Part shown: positions 11,079-48,553 of the stretch, piece by piece | Layout: each line of letters opens with the position of its first letter | Numbering within the stretch: the first letter of the stretch is position 1 | Source: Bacillota bacterium | GTDB lineage: Bacteria; Bacillota; Sulfobacillia; JACIYH01 | DNA length: 64,000 nucleotides | Reading direction: 5' to 3' | Assembly (NCBI GenBank): GCA_040757085.1 | Contig: JBFLXJ010000011.1 | Coordinates: 36,086-100,085 of the forward strand | Program-made: the position numbers and the translations under genes | Notes under the pieces: generated by a model | Seen by the model: the letters and a program-made list of their open reading frames with translations, nothing else | Databases searched by the model: none | What the model was told of the DNA's origin: nothing

Positions 11079-12632
11079 TTGCGGGCGGTGATATACGCGC
11101 GCGTCTCCACCGACGAGCAGGCGACCCGGGGCTACTCCTTGGAAGACCAGGTGGAACGGTGCACTGCCCACGCCCGGGAACTGGGGGCAATCCAGATCGA
11201 AATCTTCCGTGATGTGGAATCCGGGAGTGTCCTCACCCGGCCGGGACTGTTGGCCGCACGGGAACGGGTGGCGAGGGGCGGGGTGGAGCTTTTCGTGTGC
11301 TACGACCCGGACCGGCTGGCGCGCAATCTATCCCACCAGCTCCTGCTCACGGAGGAGATCGAGTCACGGGGGACACGGCTGGAATTCGTCAACTTCGCAT
11401 GGAAGAACACCCCCGAGGGGAAGCTCTTTTACTCGCTGCGCGGCGCTATTGCCGAATACGAGAAAGAGAAAATCAGGGAACGGAGCGTGCGCGGCAAGTT
11501 GCGGAAGCTACGGGAGGGTCGGCTTACTCACGACCCGCGCACCTACGGTTACCGGTTTGATCGGGAGCGGGATACGCTGCTGGTGGTCCCCGAGGAGGCG
11601 ACCGTGGTGCGCCGTATCTTTTCCTGGTACGCCGATGAAAACCTGGGTTGCGGCGCCATTGTATCGCGGCTCACTTCCCTCGGCATCCTCCCTCCCCGGG
11701 GGAGAAGCTGGCACCGGTCAACCGTGTCCCGTATCCTGCGTAACCCGGCGTACATCGGTTCCGCCTGCTTTCACCGGTACAACGCCGAGGGCGTGCACGC
11801 CACCAGGAGACTTCCCCCCGGCCAGAGGGTGCTCAGGAAGGAACGACCTCCGGAGGAGTGGGTTGAGGTCCCCGTTCCCGCCATAGTGGACCGGGAACTG
11901 TTCGAGCGCGCGCAGGAGAAACACCGGATGGCGAGACGCCTCTGGGCGGGGAAGTCGAGAACCCAGTATCTCCTGCGGGGCCTGGTGTGGTGCGGGGTAT
12001 GCGGGGGCAGGATCAACGGCAACCTCATCACGTCTAAAGCTAAGAAGCGGAGGTATTATGTGTGCCGGGCCGGAACAGGCCGTACACAAGGAGGCAGGGC
12101 AGGGCCTGCTTGTACGCTGGGGTACGTCCCCGCCGACGACCTGGAACGGGCGGTCTGGTATGTGGTGCTCACCGCACTGTCCGACCCGGACGCCTACCGC
12201 CGTGATCTGCAGGAAAGGACCAGGGAGGCGTGCCTGTATTTGAACACGACCGTTGAGGGCATCCAGGAGCAGATCTCCCGGTGGGCAGAACGTCGTCGCC
12301 GCCTGCTCGAGTTGTACGAGAAGGGAGTGATCCACCTGGGGGAGGTCGAGGAGAGGCTTGCGCAGTTGGGACGTTTGGTGGCCGAGCTGACCCGGCGACG
12401 AGATGACCTCCTCAGGAATGGGCCCCCGGTGGTGGTTCCCACAGATCCGGCCAGGCTGGAGCACGTCGCGGCTAAACTGGTGGAGCGGTTGGGTCGCCTG
12501 GGTTTCGAGGAGCGTCAGACCCTGGTGCGCACGCTGGTTGCCGGGCTCACCGTTCTCCCTGACGCGGTGATCCTGCACGTGCGCTGGCCCGCCGGTGCGG
12601 CAGTCTCGGGGAAAGTTGCCTCGTGCGTATAG
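11079..12632 (+). CDS. large serine recombinase (resolvase catalytic domain + recombinase domain + zinc ribbon/coiled coil)
   Basis: N-terminal AVIYARVSTDEQ catalytic serine motif, CYDPDRLARN, GRLTHDPRTYGYRF recombinase-domain motif, Cys cluster WCGVCGG...YYVCRAG; ~517 aa. Confidence 0.85.
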   Translation: MRAVIYARVSTDEQATRGYSLEDQVERCTAHARELGAIQIEIFRDVESGSVLTRPGLLAARERVARGGVELFVCYDPDRLARNLSHQLLLTEEIESRGTRLEFVNFAWKNTPEGKLFYSLRGAIAEYEKEKIRERSVRGKLRKLREGRLTHDPRTYGYRFDRERDTLLVVPEEATVVRRIFSWYADENLGCGAIVSRLTSLGILPPRGRSWHRSTVSRILRNPAYIGSACFHRYNAEGVHATRRLPPGQRVLRKERPPEEWVEVPVPAIVDRELFERAQEKHRMARRLWAGKSRTQYLLRGLVWCGVCGGRINGNLITSKAKKRRYYVCRAGTGRTQGGRAGPACTLGYVPADDLERAVWYVVLTALSDPDAYRRDLQERTREACLYLNTTVEGIQEQISRWAERRRRLLELYEKGVIHLGEVEERLAQLGRLVAELTRRRDDLLRNGPPVVVPTDPARLEHVAAKLVERLGRLGFEERQTLVRTLVAGLTVLPDAVILHVRWPAGAAVSGKVASCV

Positions 12633-37669: not shown

Positions 37670-37811
37670 ACTCTTATCCAGAGCGGCGGAGGGACTGGCC
37701 CGATGAAGCCCGGCAACCGGTCACGGGGCTAAGGCCGGCGACGGCCCCAGCCCGAGAGCGTGATGACGGTGCCAACTCCTGCGGAACCCCACGGTTCCGA
37801 GAGATGAGAGG
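37670..37811 (+). ncRNA. SAM-I (S-box) riboswitch
   Basis: matches S-box consensus blocks: CTCTTATCcAGAGcGGCGGAGGGACTGGCCCGATGAAGCCCGGCAACC ... GGTGCCAACTCCTGCGG ... GAGAGATGAGAGG. Confidence 0.85.
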
Positions 37812-37889: not shown

Positions 37890-39431
37890 GTGCCCATCTT
37901 GCCCAAGACGTTCGCCGAGATCAACCAGCGCATCCGGGAGGGCAAGGCGGTTGTGGTCACCGCCGAGGAAGTCATCCCGCTGGTGCGGGAGAAGGGCCCC
38001 CGCCGGGTGGCCCAGGAGGTGGATGTGGTTACCACGGCCACCTTCGCCCCCATGTGCTCGTCGGGAGCGTTCCTGAATTTCGGCCACAGCGAACCGCCCA
38101 TCAAGATGCAGTCGGTACGCCTGAATGACGTCCCCGCCCATGCCGGGGTGGCGGCGGTGGACGCCTACCTGGGGGCCACCGAACTCAGCCGCGTGCGGGG
38201 GATGGACTACGGGGGCGCGCACGTCATCGAAGACCTGGTATCGCGGCGGCCGGTCCTGCTGGAGGCGGAGAGCTACGGGACTGACTGTTACCCGCGGCGG
38301 TCGATCCGTACTTTCATCAGCCTGGACTCCCTGAACCAGGCCTACCTTTTTAACCCCCGGAACTGTTATCAGAACTACGCCGCCGCCACCAACGGCTCGG
38401 ACCGGATCATCTACACCTACATGGGCAAGCTCCTGCCCCGCTTCGGTAACGTGACGTATTGCAGTGCCGGCCAGCTCAGCCCCCTGCTCAACGACCCCGA
38501 CCTGCGTACGGTGGGCATTGGCACCCGGGTGTTCCTGGGCGGGGGCATCGGATACGTGGCCTGGGAGGGAACGCAGCATTTCCCGGCGCGCCGTCGCCGG
38601 GGTGACACACCGGTGGGGCCGGCGGCCACCCTGGCGCTGGTAGGGGATTTACGGGGGATGGACCCGCGCTTCCTGCGCGCCGCCACCTTCACGGGCTACG
38701 GGGTCACCCTGTTCGTGGGGGTGGGGATTGCCATCCCCATCCTGGATGAGGATCTGGCTCGCCAGGTGGCGGTGAGCGACCGGGAAATCCACACGGTGGT
38801 CCTGGACTACGGCCAACCCCACCGGGATCGCCCCGTGGTGGCCGAGGTGAGCTACGCGGAGCTACGCTCCGGGCGTGTGCTGTTGCGGGATCGCTGGGTG
38901 CCCGCTGCGCCGCTGTCCAGCCTGCGCAAGGCGCGCGAGATCGCTGTCATCCTGAAAGATTGGGTGGCGAGCGGACGTTTCTTGCTAACGGAGCCGGTTG
39001 CTCCCCTTCCCTGGCGTGATTCCCTGCACACCCTGGCCGTTACTCCGCGGGCCGGAAGCGATCCTGCTGCGGCGGAGACAGCTGCCTCTGCAGAGGGGGA
39101 CGGTCGGGGAGCATCGGGTAGGGCGGGTGTACCTGCTGCCCCGGAGGTCGCGGCCCCGGCGCAGGGGGCCGAGGGCAAGGGGGTAGAGGTTCCCCCCAGC
39201 CCTGCGACCGATCTTCTGCGGAACGGCAGGGGAAGGCCCGAACCGGATGGGGAACGCTGTGTGGCGTGTGGTGCCTGCACCGGGGTGTGCCTGCCGGGGG
39301 CGCTGCACCTTGACCCGGCCACCTGGGAGCTCTGCTGGCGGCCGGATCTGTGCACATCCTGCGCCCTGTGCCTGGATGCTTGCCCGGTGGGGGCCCTGGG
39401 CGTGGCCGTGCCCGCTGGAGGAGAGGGGTGA
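37890..39431 (+). CDS. homocysteine biosynthesis enzyme, COG1900/DUF39 family (sulfur incorporation) with C-terminal 4Fe-4S ferredoxin domain
   Basis: DUF39-type N-terminal region (AVVVTAEEV...VDVVTTATFAPM), C-terminal CVACGACTGVCLPGA...CTSCALCLDACPVGA; sits under SAM riboswitch. Confidence 0.7.
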   Translation: MPILPKTFAEINQRIREGKAVVVTAEEVIPLVREKGPRRVAQEVDVVTTATFAPMCSSGAFLNFGHSEPPIKMQSVRLNDVPAHAGVAAVDAYLGATELSRVRGMDYGGAHVIEDLVSRRPVLLEAESYGTDCYPRRSIRTFISLDSLNQAYLFNPRNCYQNYAAATNGSDRIIYTYMGKLLPRFGNVTYCSAGQLSPLLNDPDLRTVGIGTRVFLGGGIGYVAWEGTQHFPARRRRGDTPVGPAATLALVGDLRGMDPRFLRAATFTGYGVTLFVGVGIAIPILDEDLARQVAVSDREIHTVVLDYGQPHRDRPVVAEVSYAELRSGRVLLRDRWVPAAPLSSLRKAREIAVILKDWVASGRFLLTEPVAPLPWRDSLHTLAVTPRAGSDPAAAETAASAEGDGRGASGRAGVPAAPEVAAPAQGAEGKGVEVPPSPATDLLRNGRGRPEPDGERCVACGACTGVCLPGALHLDPATWELCWRPDLCTSCALCLDACPVGALGVAVPAGGEG

Positions 39432-39435
39432 CCCC

Positions 39436-40177
39436 CGTGCAGGTGGAGGAAAGATTCTACCGCCACGTCATGGGGGGTGCCGACCTGGTCACCTTCCAGG
39501 TGCAGGAAGGAGAAACAGACCTGTGGGTAGGGGTGGATCGGGAGAGTTGGCGTCTCGATCTCCCCGACCGGGTCCGCGAAGTCGTGCGGCGTGTGCGCCG
39601 GGACCTGGAAGACTACATCGGCAGAGACAGCAGGTTTATGACTTCCCTGGTGCCGGTGCCGGTCCCCGAGGATGTCCCCGGCGTGGTCCGCGAGATGGCC
39701 ATTGCCGCTGCCCGGGTGGGGGTAGGTCCCATGGCGGCTGTGGCCGGCGCGGTGGCCGAAGAGGTGGGACGGGCCCTTCTGGGCGAGGCCGGCGAGGTCA
39801 TCGTGGAGAACGGCGGTGACATCTTCCTCTGCAGCCGCAAACCGCGCCGGGTGGCGATCCTGGCCGGAACGTCGCCGTTCTCCATGCGGGTGGGCCTGCT
39901 CATCCGGGGAGACGGCCGTCCCGTGAGCGTGTGCACCTCGGCGGGACGCTGGGGGCATTCGCTGAGTTTGGGGCGGGCGGACGCGGCGGTGGCGGTGGCC
40001 CCGTCAGGGGCTCTGGCCGATGCCGCCGCTACCTGGCTGGGGAACCTGGTTCGGGAAGTGGGGGACCTTCCCACCGCTCTGGAACAGGCCCGCCGCCTGT
40101 CCGGGCTGACGGGGGCGGTGCTGATCAAAGACGCTCAGTTGGCGGCCTGGGGCGACATCCACCTTACCCCCGTCTGA
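39436..40177 (+). CDS. UPF0280/COG2122 (ApbE-like) family protein, partner of COG1900
   Basis: size and conserved blocks (GPMAAVAGAVAEEVG, VIVENGGDIFL) consistent with COG2122; GTG start after GGAGGAGAGGGG. Confidence 0.6.
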
Positions 40178-40286: not shown

Positions 40287-40316
40287 TTGACAACATGAGC
40301 GGGCAGATGCTATTTT
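40287..40316 (+). promoter_or_regulatory. sigma-A type promoter of hrcA operon (TTGACA-18 nt-TATTTT)
   Basis: TTGACA 40287-40292, TATTTT 40311-40316, immediately upstream of CIRCE. Confidence 0.55.
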
Positions 40317-40363: not shown

Positions 40364-41401
40364 GTGGACGAGCGCAAGCGGAGGATACTGCAGGCCATAG
40401 TGGAGGACTACGTGGCCACGGCCGAGCCGGTGGGTTCTCGCACCATCGCGCGCAAGTACGGGCTCGGGGTCAGCGCGGCCACTATCCGCAATGAGATGGC
40501 GGATCTGGAAGAGTTGGGGTACGTGGAGCAGCCCCATGCTTCGGCGGGGCGTATCCCATCTGACCGGGGATACCGCTACTACGTGGACGAACTGATGGAG
40601 GTGAAGCCGCTACCTGCCCCTGTGGCCGAGCGTGTCCAGGAACTGTGTGAGGGCCGCGTGCGGGCCATGGAAGCGGTGCTTCAGCAGGTGGCGCGCCTCC
40701 TCAGCGAGGCTACCAGTTCGTTGGCCATCCTGGTGGGGCCCCATGCTGGTCAGATGGTGTTCCGCAGCCTGGATCTGGTTCCCATCGGGCCCGGGCGGGC
40801 GCTGCTGGTGGCCGTGGCGGACCTCGGATTGCTGGAGTCGGGTATGGTGGAAGTCCCTGCGGATCTTACCCGGGCTGAACTCCAGTACATCTCCCAGGTG
40901 CTCACCCGGGCGCTGCGTGGCCTGACGGTGCAGGCACTGACTCAGAGCGTATTGCGGGAACTGGACGCGGAGCTGGCCCGTTACCGTCAGGTGCTGGAGC
41001 AGGTCCTGGAGATTCTGGTGGCCTCGGCCGGCGAACATCCCTCCGAGCGTATGTACCTGGTAGGGCTGAGCGCCCTGCTTTCGCAGCCCGAGTTCCACGA
41101 TCGGCAGCGGCTGCGGGCGGTGATATCAGTCCTCGAACAGGAGGTCCTGGTGAAGTACCTGCTTCTGGCCTCGGGGGAGCGAGCGGTGGAGTCGGGGGTG
41201 ACGGTGAGCATAGGCCAGGAGAATCCTCTGGGCGAGGTGCGCGACCTGAGCCTGGTGTTCGCTCCCTATCGGGTGGGCATGTCCCTGGGACGGCTGGCGG
41301 TGATAGGTCCCAAGCGTATGGACTACGGCCGGGTCGTGGGGGCGGTGTCGGAGTTCGAACGGGTACTGAGCGATCTCCTGGGGAGGTGGACCCTCGTGTA
41401 G
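40364..41401 (+). CDS. hrcA: heat-inducible transcription repressor HrcA
   Basis: N-terminal RKRRILQAIVEDYVATAEPVGSRTIARKYGLGVSAATIRNEMADLEELGY; GTG start. Confidence 0.9.
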   Translation: MDERKRRILQAIVEDYVATAEPVGSRTIARKYGLGVSAATIRNEMADLEELGYVEQPHASAGRIPSDRGYRYYVDELMEVKPLPAPVAERVQELCEGRVRAMEAVLQQVARLLSEATSSLAILVGPHAGQMVFRSLDLVPIGPGRALLVAVADLGLLESGMVEVPADLTRAELQYISQVLTRALRGLTVQALTQSVLRELDAELARYRQVLEQVLEILVASAGEHPSERMYLVGLSALLSQPEFHDRQRLRAVISVLEQEVLVKYLLLASGERAVESGVTVSIGQENPLGEVRDLSLVFAPYRVGMSLGRLAVIGPKRMDYGRVVGAVSEFERVLSDLLGRWTLV

Positions 41402-43066: not shown

Positions 43067-43357
43067 GTGGTGGGTTTGGAAGCCGGCGATGACCCACTGG
43101 TACTCAAGCTGGCCCAGTACCTGACCACCGAGTTCCGGGAGCGAACCGGGGTGGACCTGCGCTCTGACCCGGTGGCCTGGGACAAAGTCCTGCGGGCGGC
43201 CAGGCAGGCACGCCGGCAACTCGCCCGCTCCACGGTATACAGCGTCTCGCTCCCCTTCCTCGTGAGGGGGAATGAAGGACCCCTTCACCTGGACGTGGTG
43301 ATCACGCAGCGCCAGTTCCTGGAACTCATGATGGGGGAGGTACCCGGGGAGGGCTAG
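43067..43357 (+). pseudogene. Hsp70/DnaK-like fragment (96 aa, corresponds roughly to DnaK residues ~225-320); probable remnant
   Basis: alignable to DnaK segment [58 protein letters not shown]...IKVTRAKLESL (~30% identity by eye); no N-terminal ATPase start or C-terminal SBD. Confidence 0.45.
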
Positions 43358-43359
43358 CT

Positions 43360-44469
43360 TTGCCCGACAAGCGGGACTACTACGAGATCCTCGGTGTGAG
43401 CCGGGATGCCAGCCAGGAGGAAATAAAGAAGGCGTTCCGGCGGCTGGCTCGCCAGTACCACCCGGACGCCAACCCCGGTGACCCCACTGCCGAGGAGAAG
43501 TTCAAACAGATTAACGAGGCGTACGCGGTCCTTTCCGACCCTGAGAAGCGGGCGCGCTACGACGCCTTCGGCGCGGTCGACGGTGCCCCCGACCTGGGGA
43601 GTCCCTTCGCTGGCATCCAGGACCTGTTCGACATGTTCTTCGGGACCGGCCGGCCCCGGGGGCCGCGGCCCCATGAGCCCAAGCGGGGGGCCGACCTGCG
43701 CTTGGATCTGGACATCACCCTGGAGGAAGCCTTCGCCGGGGTCGAGAAAGAGCTGGAAGTACCGCGGGTGGAGCGGTGCCCCATCTGCGATGGGACGGGG
43801 GCCCGGCCCGGGAGTCCACCGGTAATATGTTCCCGATGCCGGGGTAGCGGGCAGGTGGAAACGGTGTCCGACAGCCTGTTCGGTCGCTTCGTCTCCATCC
43901 GCACCTGCCCGGCGTGCGGCGGAGAAGGGAGGGTGGTGACCGACCCCTGTCCCGACTGCGGAGGACTGGGCCGGGTGCGGCGGGTGCGGCACATCAACGT
44001 CAAGGTCCCCCCGGGGGCGGACAGCGGTTTGCGGCTGCGCCTGGCCGAAGAAGGTGAACCCGGTGCCCGGGGTGGACCTCCTGGCGACCTGTACGTGGAC
44101 ATCCATGTGCGGCCGCATCGCTTCTTCCGCCGGGAAGGCGACGACCTGCACTGTGAGGTAACCATCAGTTTCATCCAGGCTGCCCTGGGCACCGTGCTGG
44201 AAGTACCCACTCTGGAGGGGTCAAGTCCGGTTAAGGTGCCCGAGGGGACGCAACCCGGAACGGTGATCCGGCTGCGGGGCCTGGGGATGCCCCGCCTGCG
44301 GGGAGGAGGAAGGGGTGACCTGCACGTACACCTGGACGTGCGCACTCCTACCGGGCTCAGCCCCCGGGAGAAGGAGTTGCTGCGGGAGCTGGCTGCCATC
44401 CGCGGGGAGGGCGTCAAGGGGAAGGACAAGGGGATATGGGGGCGCGTGAAAGAAGCCTGGAACAGCTGA
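43360..44469 (+). CDS. dnaJ: molecular chaperone DnaJ
   Basis: J-domain DYYEILGV...HPD, Gly/Phe region, four CxxCxGxG zinc-finger repeats. Confidence 0.9.
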
Positions 44470-45254
44470 ACCCCTGCCCCCATGCCCGCTTCACCGTGGA
44501 AGCGGGGGCCATCCGGGGCGACGAAGTGCTGTTCGGACAGGAGGCGGCCTGGCAAATGGCGCGCGTCCTGCGTCTCGGGCCCGGCCAGGTGGTGGGGGTG
44601 ATGGTGGAAGGGCGGGAACTGGCCGTCAGGCTCGAAGAGGTGGGGCCACGGCAGAGCAGGGGGCGGGTGCTGGGGCCGGTGGACAGGTTCACCGAGCCGG
44701 GGGTAACGGTGGCCATCCTCCAGGCCCTGCTCAAGGGGGACCGCACGGACCTGGTGGTGCAGAAAGCCACCGAACTGGGGGTCAGCTACATCTTCCCCGT
44801 TATCACCGCCCGAACGGTGGTGCGCCCCTCCGCATCCCCAGGGAAATTGCAGAGGTGGGAGAAGATCGCCCGCGAGGCTGCCGAACAGTCACTGCGCACC
44901 CGGGTGCCGGCCATCTTTCCTCCCCAGAATCTGGAGCAGGCCCTGGAGCAGGCCCGTCAGTTGTTGCCGGGGGCTACTCTTGTCGTCCTCTGGGAAGAAG
45001 AGCGGAAGGTGGGTTTGTGCGATGTGCTGGCGGGCGACGGTAAGGAAATCATATTGCTGATGGGACCCGAGGGAGGCCTGACGGCGGACGAGGTGGCCGG
45101 GGTGCTGGCACTGGGTGGCAGGTCGGCCAGCCTGGGTACCCGCATCCTGCGTTCGGAGACGGCGGCGCTCGCTGCCCTCACCCTGGTGCTGGCGTCCCGG
45201 GGCGAGATCGGCCGCGCCCCCGGGGGGTGGAGACCGGGGTGTGTTTCGTCTTGA
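44436..45254 (+). CDS. rsmE: 16S rRNA (uracil1498-N3)-methyltransferase RsmE
   Basis: RsmE-type N-terminus (ARFTV...) and C-terminal SPOUT motif [15 protein letters not shown]...[17 protein letters not shown]; start uncertain (overlaps dnaJ). Confidence 0.75.
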
Positions 45255-46633
45255 GCGAGGGCGGGCCGCGGGGGAAGGTGGCCTTTTACACCTTGGGTTG
45301 CAAGGTGAACCGGTACGATACCGAGGCCATGGCCGAACTTTTCCGCCGGGCGGGATGGGAGATAGTCGACTTCCGGGATATGGCCGACGTGTACGTCGTC
45401 AACACGTGCACGGTCACGGCCCGGAGCGAGGCCCAGTCCCGTCAGGCGGTGCGGCAGGCACGGCGTCGGAATCCCGCCGGCCTGGTGGTGGTGTGCGGTT
45501 GTTATCCCCAGGTGCAGGGGGAAGAAGCACTTTCTGCCACGGGCGCCGACGTGGTGCTGGGAACGCGGGGACGGGGTAAGATCGTCTCCCTGGTGGAAAG
45601 GGCCCTGCGGGGCGAGAAGCCCTTGGTGGAGGTGGCGCCCGGGCCCGCCATGAGCACCCGCCCTGCACCGGTTACCCCGGAGGCTGCTACGGCTCCAGAG
45701 CAGTACGAGGAGGTTCCGGTGGTGGGCCAGGGTCGCACGCGGGCTATCCTCAAGGTGCAGGAAGGGTGTAACATGCGCTGTACATACTGCATCGTCCCCG
45801 CTGCCCGGGGACATGCCCGCAGCCGCGACCCGGGGGCTGCCCTGGAGGAAGCCCGCCGCCTGGTGGCGGCCGGGTTCCGGGAGATCGTCCTTACCGGCAT
45901 CCAGCTGGGCGCCTACGGCCGCGACCTGGGCATTCCCGATGGGCTGGCCTGGCTGGTGGAGAAGATGGCCGCCATCGGCGGCCTGTGGAGGCTGCGCCTG
46001 AGTTCCATCGAGCCGGTGGACCTCACGGACGCGCTCGTTGGCACCATGGCTTCTCAGCGGGTTGTTTGCCCCCACCTGCACCTCCCCCTGCAAAGCGGCT
46101 CCGACCGCGTCCTGGCGGCCATGGGGCGGCCTTACTCCGCCGGGGATTACCTGCGCCTGGTGGAGCGGGCCCGGGAAAAGATGCCGGGAATGGCCCTCTC
46201 CACCGACGTGATGGTCGGGTTCCCCGGCGAGACGGACGAGGACTTCGCCGCCACGCTGCAGGTGGTGGAAAAGGCTGGTTTCATGCGGCTGCATGTCTTC
46301 CCCTATTCCCCCAGGCCAGGCACGGCCGCTGCCCGGTTGCCGGACGGGGTGCCCGAGAAAGTGAAGGAGGAGAGGGCTCGCGTCCTGCGCGAACTGGGTA
46401 TGCGTCTGGGCCGGGCCTTTGCGGAGCAAATGGTGGGACAGGTGGTGGAGGTTCTGGCGGAGCGGGAGCAGGACGGCCAGGTGTCCGGGTTGACCCGGAA
46501 CTACGTGAGGGTTCGCTTCCCCGGCGGGCCGGAACTGGAAGGATGCCTGGTCGAGGTGCGCGTCATCGGTGCCGACCCCGACGGTGCGCGGGGCGAGTTG
46601 ACGGGCGTGCTGGCAGCTCCGGAAGACGAATAG
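45227..46633 (+). CDS. mtaB: radical-SAM methylthiotransferase, MtaB (YqeV)-like
   Basis: MTTase N-domain (VAFYTLGCKVNRYDTE), radical SAM CxxxCxxC (CNMRCTYC), TRAM C-terminus; conserved position after rsmE as in Bacillus yqeV. Confidence 0.75.
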   Translation: METGVCFVLSEGGPRGKVAFYTLGCKVNRYDTEAMAELFRRAGWEIVDFRDMADVYVVNTCTVTARSEAQSRQAVRQARRRNPAGLVVVCGCYPQVQGEEALSATGADVVLGTRGRGKIVSLVERALRGEKPLVEVAPGPAMSTRPAPVTPEAATAPEQYEEVPVVGQGRTRAILKVQEGCNMRCTYCIVPAARGHARSRDPGAALEEARRLVAAGFREIVLTGIQLGAYGRDLGIPDGLAWLVEKMAAIGGLWRLRLSSIEPVDLTDALVGTMASQRVVCPHLHLPLQSGSDRVLAAMGRPYSAGDYLRLVERAREKMPGMALSTDVMVGFPGETDEDFAATLQVVEKAGFMRLHVFPYSPRPGTAAARLPDGVPEKVKEERARVLRELGMRLGRAFAEQMVGQVVEVLAEREQDGQVSGLTRNYVRVRFPGGPELEGCLVEVRVIGADPDGARGELTGVLAAPEDE

Positions 46634-46653: not shown

Positions 46654-47796
46654 GTGCCGCAAAAACTGCGGGTGGGCATCGTCTTCGGAGGACGTTCCGG
46701 GGAACACGAAGTTTCCCTGATGTCCGCTGCTTCGGTCATCTCGGCCCTTGACCGGGAGAAGTACGAGCGCGTGCTGGTGGGGATAGACAAGGAGGGCCGA
46801 TGGCGCCTGTTGCCGCCCCTGACGGGACAGGTGAACCCGGTGATGCTGGCCGAGGCCATGGCGCGAGCACCGGTGGTGACGCTGGCCGCCGATCCCCGGG
46901 AGCCCTTCCTCTTCGGGTTACCAGGGCGGGACGCCGCAGCGGTCATGCAAAGGATGGACGTGGTGTTCCCCGTCCTCCATGGTCCCTACGGCGAGGACGG
47001 CTCCGTGCAGGGGCTCCTCGAACTGGCCGGCATCCCGTACGTGGGGGCCGGGGTGCTTGCCTCTGCCCTGGGGATGGATAAGGCGGTCATGAAGGTGGTT
47101 TTTTCCGCCCACGGTCTCCCCGTAGCCCCCTTTCGGGTGGTGTTGAGGAGTCGCTGGGAAAAGGCCCGGGATGCGGTGGCCGAGGAACTGGAGGCGGCGT
47201 TCGGTTATCCCTGCTTCGTCAAACCGGCCAACCTGGGTTCTTCGGTGGGGGTTGCCCGATGCCAGAACCGGGGGCAGCTGATGAAGGCGATGGACAATGC
47301 TGCCCGGTACGACCGCAAACTGGTGGTGGAGAAGGGTGTCCGCTGCCGGGAGCTGGAGTGCAGCGTGCTGGGCAACGACGAGCCCCTGGCGTCGGTGGTG
47401 GGTGAGATCGTTCCCGGGCGGGAGTTTTACGACTACGCCTCCAAGTACCTGGATCCCCGCACCCGGCTGGTCATCCCGGCCCCGGTGCCCGATGAGGTTT
47501 CCCGCCAGGTGCAGGATCTGGCTATCCGGGCCTTCCGGGCTATTGACTGTTCCGGGATGGCCCGGGTGGACTTCTTCTGGGACCAGGATTCGGGGGAGGT
47601 GCTGGTGAACGAGATCAACACCATCCCCGGGTTCACCGCGGTGAGCATGTACCCCAAGCTCTGGGAGGCCACCGGCCTGCGATACTCGCACTTGCTGGAT
47701 CGGCTCATCGAACTGGCCCGGGAGCGGCACCGGGAAATGAGCCGTCGCCTAACCAGCTACGTGCCCGAAGAGGATGACGGGCAGGGAGCGCCTTGA
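46654..47796 (+). CDS. ddl: D-alanine--D-alanine ligase
   Basis: N-terminal VGIVFGGRSGEHEVSLMSA, ATP-grasp motifs (GYPCFVKPANLGSSVGV; MARVDFF; NEINTIPGFT). Confidence 0.85.
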   Translation: MPQKLRVGIVFGGRSGEHEVSLMSAASVISALDREKYERVLVGIDKEGRWRLLPPLTGQVNPVMLAEAMARAPVVTLAADPREPFLFGLPGRDAAAVMQRMDVVFPVLHGPYGEDGSVQGLLELAGIPYVGAGVLASALGMDKAVMKVVFSAHGLPVAPFRVVLRSRWEKARDAVAEELEAAFGYPCFVKPANLGSSVGVARCQNRGQLMKAMDNAARYDRKLVVEKGVRCRELECSVLGNDEPLASVVGEIVPGREFYDYASKYLDPRTRLVIPAPVPDEVSRQVQDLAIRAFRAIDCSGMARVDFFWDQDSGEVLVNEINTIPGFTAVSMYPKLWEATGLRYSHLLDRLIELARERHREMSRRLTSYVPEEDDGQGAP

Positions 47797-47810
47797 CGGA
47801 GGCGAGGTCC

Positions 47811-48155
47811 ATGGAGGAATGCCCATTCTGTCGGATCGTGAAAGGGGACCTGCCCTCCCAGAAGGTCTACGAAGGGGAGAGGGTAGTGGCCTTCCGGGAC
47901 ATCCGTCCCCAGGCGCCCGTGCACGTGCTGGTGATTCCCCGCCGGCACGTGGGGTCGCTCCTGGAACTGGGGGATGCTGACGGGGATCTGGCCGGCGAAC
48001 TGCTGCTGACGGCGGTGCGGGTAGCTCGCCAGGAGGGAGTGGACCGCGACGGTTTTCGCCTGGTGGTGAACACGGGATGGCGCTCGGGGCAGACCGTGGG
48101 CCACCTGCACATCCATGTGCTGGGGGGTCGCATCTTCCGCTGGCCTCCCGGCTGA
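47811..48155 (+). CDS. HIT family (histidine triad) protein
   Basis: CPFCRI...APVHVLVIPRRHV...GQTVGHLHIHVLGG histidine triad. Confidence 0.8.
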   Translation: MEECPFCRIVKGDLPSQKVYEGERVVAFRDIRPQAPVHVLVIPRRHVGSLLELGDADGDLAGELLLTAVRVARQEGVDRDGFRLVVNTGWRSGQTVGHLHIHVLGGRIFRWPPG

Positions 48156-48486: not shown

Positions 48487-48553
48487 GCAGGCCCGAGCAC
48501 CGTGGAGAAAGACCCAGGCGACCAGTCCCCAGCGGGACTGGTCGATAATTTTG

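Follow-up and report, generated by a model that had tools for sequence, protein, structure and literature searches.

Why should a single lobe of Hsp70 be encoded as a gene of its own between a chaperonin gene and dnaJ? The question is raised by a heat-shock operon in a 64,000-nucleotide stretch of contig JBFLXJ010000011.1 from a Bacillota bacterium (this whole stretch is called the window below). An initial annotation had noted there a short open reading frame (ORF) resembling part of DnaK, and had regarded it either as a dnaK pseudogene in decay, left behind when the chaperonin gene was inserted, or as a retained mini-ORF. Comparison with related loci indicates that the ORF, here called mini-Hsp70, is very probably a real and functional gene derived from subdomain IIB of the DnaK nucleotide-binding domain (NBD). 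The explanation that we favour overall, at somewhat better than even chances, joins this origin to a more tentative role as docking accessory of the chaperonin and DnaJ encoded on either side.

Identity and fold of mini-Hsp70

The ORF is found where it had been annotated, on the + strand at 43067-43357 and directly upstream of dnaJ, with a GTG start and 96 codons in the ORF listing. This GTG lies 6 nt past the stop of the chaperonin gene, and the stop of mini-Hsp70 is followed after 2 nt by the start of dnaJ. The true start is most likely TTG 43076, 15 nt past the chaperonin stop and giving a protein of 93 residues (MEAGDDP...), and not GTG 43067, since the orthologues begin at the codon aligned with this TTG and the upstream GTGs are out of frame in the related locus L001.

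The profile search suggested in the initial annotation gave a significant Hsp70 match, Pfam PF00012 at E=1.5e-9 and 37.1 bits against a gathering cut-off of 20.6, covering profile positions 229-303 of 599 only. The NCBIfam DnaK equivalogs were matched at 3e-13 to 4e-10 with 49 bits, far under the equivalog cut-offs of 648-1019. Using phmmer against the PDB, the protein was matched to Geobacillus kaustophilus DnaK (2v7y, 1.3e-11) and aligned without gaps to residues 230-307 of E. coli DnaK (1dkg). The identity found by tblastn was 32% over 75 residues to E. coli DnaK and 36% over 81 residues to a Firmicute DnaK (E=2.7e-12), close to the figure of about 30% first proposed. Judged by these scores, the homology to Hsp70/DnaK is far above chance.

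The span of mini-Hsp70 corresponds to NBD subdomain IIB, approximately residues 228-310 of E. coli DnaK, and its stop falls at a point equivalent to DnaK residue ∼315. The complete actin-like ATPase domain (IA, IB, IIA and IIB with the phosphate-binding loops) is not present, nor are the interdomain linker and the substrate-binding domain (SBD). Thus the initial annotation had correctly described a IIB segment without the ATPase N-terminus and without the SBD, though its placement of this segment just before the linker was mistaken, as the second half of IIA (residues ∼311-385) separates IIB from the linker. An AlphaFold2 model made with eight orthologues (mean pLDDT 82.5) predicts two long helices, a β-hairpin and a short helix. 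Foldseek matched this model to the solved IIB structures of DnaK and mortalin with probability 1.00, TM 0.79-0.83 and rmsd 1.3-1.9 Å over 80-84 residues, the headline superposition on DnaK IIB having a TM of 0.80 and an rmsd of 1.4 Å.

The frameshifted pieces of dnaK that the initial annotation had thought might lie nearby did not appear. When the 64-kb window, and the region 41.4-43.4 kb alone, were searched by tblastn using the DnaK and GrpE of E. coli and of a Firmicute (L058), no dnaK or grpE piece came up beyond mini-Hsp70 itself, seen as a single high-scoring segment pair (HSP) at 43085-43330. The gaps of 15 nt and 2 nt around the gene also leave no space for further pieces there.

Two other assignments were tried and rejected. 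No PADLOC defence-system match was obtained for mini-Hsp70, and membership of a defence system was discarded for this reason. Fusion to the chaperonin or to DnaJ by readthrough or frameshifting was also discarded; the relative frames vary among orthologues, the chaperonin and mini-Hsp70 being in the same frame in the window and in L001 and not in L005.

Distribution of mini-Hsp70 and of operon types

Seven short homologues of 93-106 residues and 62-98% identity were found in a word-indexed protein search. An exhaustive profile search of 1.84 billion representative proteins added further copies, in at least 10 clusters at 50% identity, and those of L091, L012, L013, L014 and L015 were recovered by reading the gaps between the chaperonin gene and dnaJ of related loci. 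Searching JGI metagenomes with a narrower alignment gave just one new locus (L101) and two ordinary DnaKs. A 64%-GC contig from the same source (L103, Ga0070735_10022726) has at 1351-2847 a DnaK homologue that stops at about residue 498, without most of the helical lid, and is directly followed by dnaJ; this truncated form of Hsp70 is unrelated to mini-Hsp70.

The gene occupies the same slot, hrcA-chaperonin-mini-Hsp70-dnaJ, in every locus inspected (the window, L001-L015, L091-L094 and L101), so that the comparison with orthologous loci proposed in the initial annotation gave a uniform answer. Its length is 84-119 codons across the inspected copies, 84-107 residues in the 15 lineages used for alignment and 92-119 residues in the other cluster representatives. 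No stop codon or frameshift was seen among the copies read, which include all 15 aligned lineages and extend down to ∼31% amino-acid identity to the window copy.

A scan of one genome per species for the chaperonin gave 80 loci, annotated by tblastn, and the loci were assigned to three classes: MINI, as above; FULL, with the order hrcA-chaperonin-grpE-dnaK-dnaJ; and NONE, in which the chaperonin gene adjoins dnaJ. The FULL operon was present in 59 loci, including those of Pelotomaculum, Thermincola, Pelosinus, Lucifera and Desulfocucumis. Neither grpE nor full-length dnaK was found in the window operon or in the other MINI and NONE loci. The NONE loci (L016, L017, L019, L024, L035, L038, L039, L074, L084, L087 and L089), which have no mini-Hsp70 either, include the complete genome of Ca. 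Fermentithermobacillus carboniphilus (CP062796.1). At their junction the stop codon of the chaperonin gene and the start codon of dnaJ share bases, e.g. in the TTGA of L038 and L074, or are 2-36 nt apart. In two of the FULL loci, L042 (12200-13922) and L063 (12224-13967), the dnaK match is divided into two HSPs (residues 1-158/199-638 and 1-443/436-566), which could be due to assembly errors or to ongoing disruption of dnaK.

Purifying selection on mini-Hsp70

Within the window group, the Nei-Gojobori (NG86) omega of mini-Hsp70 was 0.09-0.30 at dS of 0.4-1.0, rising to 0.27-0.53 for the most divergent member, L004. The neighbouring genes gave, in the same comparison, 0.04-0.07 (chaperonin), 0.06-0.08 (dnaJ) and 0.08-0.15 (hrcA). 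Ratios of pN/pS for mini-Hsp70, uncorrected and hence pushed upward by saturation of pS, were 0.19 for the window and L001 (95% bootstrap interval 0.10-0.33), 0.31 for L005 and L009 (0.20-0.45), 0.49 for L010 and L004 (0.37-0.69), 0.47 for L012 and L013 (0.33-0.63) and 0.53 for L014 and L015 (0.36-0.73), dS in the mini-Hsp70 comparisons extending from 0.6 to >2. The GC1/GC2/GC3 values of 0.75/0.42/0.82, against 0.71/0.42/0.80 for the chaperonin gene, follow the same pattern as the neighbours, and motifs resembling a Shine-Dalgarno (SD) sequence stand ahead of most mini-Hsp70 starts, e.g. GGAGG 7-8 nt upstream in L092 and L012. By these measures mini-Hsp70 is a conserved small ORF under purifying selection and not a decaying leftover.

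The pseudogene of the initial annotation would be a functionless remnant of a deleted dnaK which has not yet had time to erode. In its favour, the gene does derive from dnaK by deletion, does evolve faster than its neighbours and has been completely lost in some lineages. However, frame and length are intact in 15 of the 15 aligned lineages at the dS values given above, all five pN/pS intervals lie below 1 where a dN/dS of about 1 would be expected of such a remnant, the start and the SD-like motif are kept, the residues of the fold core are invariant (listed below), no fragments of the parent gene lie alongside, and the end-points of the deletions match the boundaries of the subdomain. We consider that this reading is already largely refuted and now highly improbable. 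The retained mini-ORF, the other possibility first offered, agrees with the intact frame, the purifying selection and the conserved slot.

A frame might also be held open for reasons that have nothing to do with its product. In that case the ORF would serve only for the passage of ribosomes from the chaperonin gene to dnaJ and to carry the dnaJ SD sequence, the peptide being irrelevant. The tiny intergenic gaps fit such a spacer, as does the position of the dnaJ SD-like motif GGGGAGGG, which falls within the last codons of mini-Hsp70. Selection for an open frame alone would not, however, keep dN/dS at 0.1-0.3 over the full length of the gene, nor preserve the IIB core across copies with as little as ∼31% identity. 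Moreover, the NONE lineages couple the chaperonin gene straight to dnaJ and therefore no spacer ORF is needed. We consider a spacer without a functional peptide to be improbable.

Remodelling of the IIB subdomain

The 15 aligned minis were compared, residue by residue, with 57 DnaKs from related loci using the numbering of E. coli DnaK. The minis run from about residue 226-231 to about 310-317, and these limits are the boundaries of IIB. Residues F244, G249, A258, L273, L283, P284 and H295 are invariant in minis and DnaKs, and V/I281, L296, D297, D251 and D255 are nearly so, L296 and D297 being invariant among the minis. On this alignment and the model, the conserved residues are those of the fold core and the hairpin.

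The residues lost are of a different kind. The DnaK-invariant hinge G228-G229-D-D231-F232-D233 (GGDDFD), Q260, R261 and R302 are replaced in the minis, as are E264, E267, K268, K270, E272 and S274 of the cleft-facing helix, mostly by Arg; in the window copy this helix reads RAARQARRQLARS. Residues E264, E267, K270 and S274, which contact adenosine or bridge to lobe I, are together with GGDDFD present in 100% of the 57 DnaKs and replaced in all mini lineages. K294 has become Leu and M259 has become Trp or Phe. Given the absence of the ATPase site, the linker and the SBD, and the replacement of the cleft residues, mini-Hsp70 is predicted neither to bind nucleotide nor to chaperone clients via an Hsp70 cycle.

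The same residues bear on the possibility of a split gene, in which an NBD lacking IIB, together with the SBD, would be encoded elsewhere and mini-Hsp70 would reassemble with it in trans to an active Hsp70. Split enzymes that reconstitute are recorded in related thermophiles, e.g. the Carboxydothermus hydrogenoformans transketolase (PMC7661550). Yet the residues for adenine and ribose and for the salt bridge to IB (E264, E267, K270 and S274), and the GGDDFD hinge, are conserved in no mini lineage, and no Hsp70 lacking IIB was present among the profile matches inspected. Replacement of the cleft residues leaves no contribution to nucleotide binding and so rules out this role; from its sequence, mini-Hsp70 does not complement a split DnaK in trans, and we find the split gene barely credible.

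Another role would be that of a decoy. A heat-induced free IIB could titrate GrpE, or the M-domain of ClpB, away from a DnaK/GrpE/ClpB system encoded elsewhere and so tune nucleotide exchange or the activation of the disaggregase. IIB is the main docking lobe for both partners (PMC10803776, PMC8209680, PMC8215388). The hairpin carrying F/Y285, a contact of both, is the best-conserved part of the minis, and the invariant J domain and HPD motif of the co-encoded DnaJ argue for a full Hsp70 somewhere. The individual contacts argue otherwise. E264 (E236 in Mycobacterium tuberculosis) is joined to GrpE by a salt bridge, and binding of GrpE is blocked when this residue is lost in combination with Y257A (PMC10803776), whereas in 13 of the 15 minis this position is R, Q, K or A. 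L/M257 (M. tuberculosis M229) is needed for binding of the ClpB M-domain, and Y/F285 is a contact (PMC8209680); in the minis position 257 is variable (V/A/Q/T/L/E/R), and at 285 there is Phe in 73% of them and Cys in 27%. In addition, neither the operon nor the rest of the window contains grpE, and an isolated IIB lacks the contacts of IB, IA and the SBD that confer affinity for GrpE. With E264 lost, 257 variable and only F285 mostly kept, a simple decoy of the DnaK partner surface is unlikely.

Origin and loss

The initial annotation attributed the loss of dnaK to insertion of the chaperonin gene, and this does not hold. In 59 related loci the chaperonin gene coexists with an intact grpE-dnaK-dnaJ, and by this comparison the chaperonin gene was inserted before dnaK was truncated, the two events being independent. 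The gene orders indicate that the ancestral operon is CIRCE-hrcA-chaperonin-grpE-dnaK-dnaJ and that mini-Hsp70 descends from that operon's own dnaK. One clade of Bacillota would have deleted grpE with dnaK codons ∼1-225, and also dnaK codons from ∼315 to the end, so that what was left was precisely one subdomain able to fold by itself, equipped with a start codon and an SD-like motif of its own. The gene would then have diverged fast, remained under purifying selection and been lost again in at least two sublineages, where the chaperonin gene now abuts dnaJ.

In distance trees of the chaperonin and of HrcA+chaperonin+DnaJ, the MINI and NONE loci nest as a clade among FULL operons, with bootstrap support of 82% without L092 and 98% with L058, L021 and L092. 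The NONE lineages are not monophyletic (12.5%), and therefore mini-Hsp70 was probably lost at least twice. All minis form a monophyletic group against the IIB segments of the 57 DnaKs (100% neighbour-joining bootstrap) and they have derived states in common, namely A237, a basic residue at 247, an aromatic at 259 and basic residues at 264/267, which together favour a single origin. Identity of the minis to DnaK IIB is 21-40%, the IIB segments of the neighbouring DnaKs being 76% identical among themselves; the most DnaK-like copy, at 40%, is that of L092.

The neighbourhood of L092, lepA-hemN-x-hrcA-chaperonin-mini-Hsp70-dnaJ-prmA-rsmE, is, by comparison with the dnaK operon of Bacillus subtilis, the canonical dnaK locus of Firmicutes. 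At L092 this normally unique locus lacks grpE-dnaK.

Possible function with the chaperonin and DnaJ

The mechanism that we tentatively propose is that mini-Hsp70 serves the co-encoded chaperonin-DnaJ pair as a small subunit with a docking or accessory role. It would be co-transcribed from the promoter controlled by CIRCE and HrcA and translated with translational coupling to the chaperonin and DnaJ. Its partner, the chaperonin and/or DnaJ, would be bound by the conserved β-hairpin (V-x-L-P-F/C...P-L/R-H-L-D), and a second putative contact is the helix that once faced the cleft, whose charge has changed from acidic to basic (AAR-x-A-R-R). The chaperonin and DnaJ are the best candidates for partners because the linkage is kept at every locus read. 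Physical cooperation of Group III chaperonins with DnaK/DnaJ has been suggested (PMC5635000, PMC5220055).

In the zinc-finger domain of DnaJ there is a weak cluster of MINI-specific changes, R149, L173, D195, D199 and R205 in the window protein. These states occur in nearly all mini-bearing lineages and are rare in FULL and NONE, a distribution confounded by phylogeny and GC bias. The cluster is a possible hint of a contact with mini-Hsp70, to be taken as a lead and not as evidence.

A number of observations weigh against the proposal. The assignment of a partner is a guess from gene linkage, and a column scan of the chaperonin for residues tracking the presence of mini-Hsp70 revealed nothing convincing. 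Mini-Hsp70 was lost at least twice with the chaperonin and DnaJ kept, and is therefore dispensable for both. Selection on it is weaker than on the neighbouring genes, the constraint on part of its C-terminal tail comes from the ribosome-binding site of dnaJ and not from the protein, and the deep pairs, with pN/pS of 0.76-0.81 and upper confidence limits of ∼1, are saturated and uninformative. Finally, in the operon tree the MINI locus L092 pairs with the FULL locus L021 at 91% bootstrap, so that a single origin is not secure; either dnaK was truncated twice, independently, to the same subdomain or the tree is in error.

In all MINI and NONE lineages the HPD motif of DnaJ is invariant and a DLFDMFF-type G/F segment is kept. 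By the established function of the J domain, these conserved features argue for a full Hsp70 elsewhere in the genomes. A DnaK search of a 5.8-billion-protein set gave an uninformative flat plateau at 71-77% identity and no match attributable to a MINI or NONE assembly, and a filter on amino-acid composition for DnaKs of high-GC origin was non-discriminating. The candidates P0280, P0316 and P0285 proved by their contexts to be dnaK loci of other Firmicutes, without a chaperonin gene. It is conceivable, if rather doubtful, that these Bacillota have no full-length Hsp70 or GrpE genome-wide; the locus would then have been rewired to a DnaK-less system of chaperonin, DnaJ and remodelled IIB, with mini-Hsp70 the surviving docking piece of an old hand-off complex between DnaK and the chaperonin and DnaJ.

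The operon and other features of the window

The features of the operon are collected in Table 1. The closest natural solved structure to the window chaperonin is the Group III chaperonin of C. hydrogenoformans (5x9u, 2e-145), archaeal thermosomes being matched at 2e-72 or weaker; by these matches the protein belongs to bacterial Group III and is more distant from archaeal Group II. The first + strand terminator-like site past the operon start is at 48519-48544, beyond the co-directional downstream genes, and the downstream order of rsmE-like, mtaB-like, ddl and HIT genes is repeated in L001, L003, L005 and L007.

Table 1. Mini-Hsp70 and the surrounding features of the heat-shock operon in the window.
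Feature	Position	Strand	Evidence
Putative sigma-70-type promoter-like site, TTGACA-18-TATTTT with TG extension	40287..40316	+	Consensus match only (scan, 10/12 matches)
CIRCE operator, HrcA binding site, TTAGCACTC-N9-GAGTGCTAA	40328..40354	+	0 mismatches; 0 matches in 100 shuffles; 10 nt upstream of hrcA
hrcA, heat-inducible repressor	40364..41401	+	TIGR00331 2.8e-93, above cut-off; Pfam HrcA 6.8e-56
Group III (bacterial thermosome-like) chaperonin, 531 aa	41465..43060	+	Pfam Cpn60_TCP1 4e-114
mini-Hsp70 gene (stand-alone DnaK NBD subdomain IIB, 93 aa)	43076..43357	+	Homology, AlphaFold2 model, purifying selection, conserved synteny; SD-like GGAG..GGTGGG upstream; start aligned with orthologues; alternative in-frame GTG 43067 (96 aa)
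dnaJ, TTG start	43360..44469	+	TIGR02349 1.4e-125; Pfam DnaJ, DnaJ_CXXCXGXG, DnaJ_C; full J domain with HPD, G/F region, Zn finger, C-terminal domains
rsmE-like	44436-45254	+	Pfam Methyltrans_RNA
mtaB-like	45227-46633	+	Pfam UPF0004+Radical_SAM
ddl	46654-47796	+	Pfam Dala_Dala_lig
HIT gene	47793-48155	+	Pfam HIT

Upstream of the operon, a SAM riboswitch (RF00162, 84.5 bits) at 37671-37810 on the + strand precedes a gene for a protein with HcyBio (homocysteine-biosynthesis) and 4Fe-4S ferredoxin domains at 37890-39431; the latter gene also precedes the operon in L002, L003 and L007. The 275-residue ORF at 39350-40177 (+ strand), just upstream of the promoter-like site and CIRCE, had no match in the copy of Pfam that was searched, and its counterparts by position in L001, L002, L003 and L007 are recorded as PF27030 AbpE_bact. 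Far from the operon, at 11079-12632 on the + strand, is the gene of a large serine recombinase (Resolvase + Recombinase + Zn_ribbon_recom), flanked on one side by a peptide-transporter/peptidase cluster and on the other by a GntR/FAD-oxidoreductase cluster; it may mark the boundary of a mobile element.

Relation to known systems and significance

With IIB of intact DnaK (PDB 1DKG, 2V7Y and lobe II of 5OOW), mini-Hsp70 has 30-36% identity, the same predicted fold and, across the minis, the core F244, G249, D251, D255, A258, L273, L283, P284, H295 and D297 in common. It differs in being free-standing at 84-119 residues instead of a lobe of a ∼620-residue ATPase, in evolving several-fold faster than IIB does within DnaK and in having lost the hinge and the cleft-facing residues.

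Techtmann and Robb are said to have found, in 2010, the Group III chaperonin embedded in the hsp70 operon. The window operon has the same family of chaperonin in the same slot after hrcA, under CIRCE control and with dnaJ at the end, but it is without grpE and without any of dnaK except IIB. The Group III chaperonin operon has been described with Hsp70, DnaJ and GrpE (An et al. 2017, PMC5635000; PMC5220055), and variants with a truncated dnaK, or with chaperonin and dnaJ only, are not mentioned in these or in the other Group III chaperonin papers examined.

The Aquificales are another thermophilic bacterial lineage that has stripped dnaK and grpE from the ancestral locus. There DnaK, J-protein and GrpE are all gone, whereas the MINI clade keeps DnaJ with its invariant HPD and one lobe of DnaK as a gene. 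A review of 2021 (PMC8215388) knows of only two free-living bacterial species without any Hsp70, and both are also without J-proteins and GrpE.

Other proteins, too, make use of IIB detached from Hsp70 and its ATPase. These comprise a TIR protein with two IIB copies (P0129, 326 residues, with weak PADLOC matches to ThsB/SAVED-TIR), a protein of two IIB copies (P0132, 163 residues), IIB behind an FHA-like (Yop-YscD_cpl) N-terminus (P0134 and P0136, 927 and 882 residues), IIB behind a Zn-ribbon-like N-terminus (P0192, 112 residues), a large surface-type protein (P0131, 1305 residues) and DnaK-like stand-alone IIB proteins (P0169 and P0205, 86 and 91 residues). In contrast to mini-Hsp70, the sequences of P0129, P0132, P0134, P0136 and P0192 are far more like DnaK, the EAAEKAK helix included, and their architectures are unrelated to it. 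Recurrence in such architectures indicates that IIB behaves as an autonomous module, and mini-Hsp70 would appear to be a stand-alone, neofunctionalised Hsp70 subdomain.

Hsp70 is usually viewed as indivisible. Here one lobe has apparently been carved out by two deletions at subdomain boundaries and kept clade-wide, a clean example from nature of a microprotein that arose out of one domain of an essential chaperone. For the annotation of genomes, the label 'Hsp70 family protein' given automatically to mini-Hsp70 ORFs should not count as the presence of DnaK. A clade of thermophilic Bacillota, including Ca. Fermentithermobacillus carboniphilus, has had grpE-dnaK removed from the canonical locus with dnaJ kept. 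Lying between the Group III chaperonin and DnaJ, mini-Hsp70 is a minimal candidate for the contact module in the cooperation proposed between this chaperonin and DnaK/DnaJ (PMC5635000). If there is indeed no dnaK elsewhere, these organisms would be a notable exception, a bacterial lineage with a J-protein and its HPD motif but no Hsp70, and would offer a direct handle on the communication of Group III chaperonins with the Hsp70 system.

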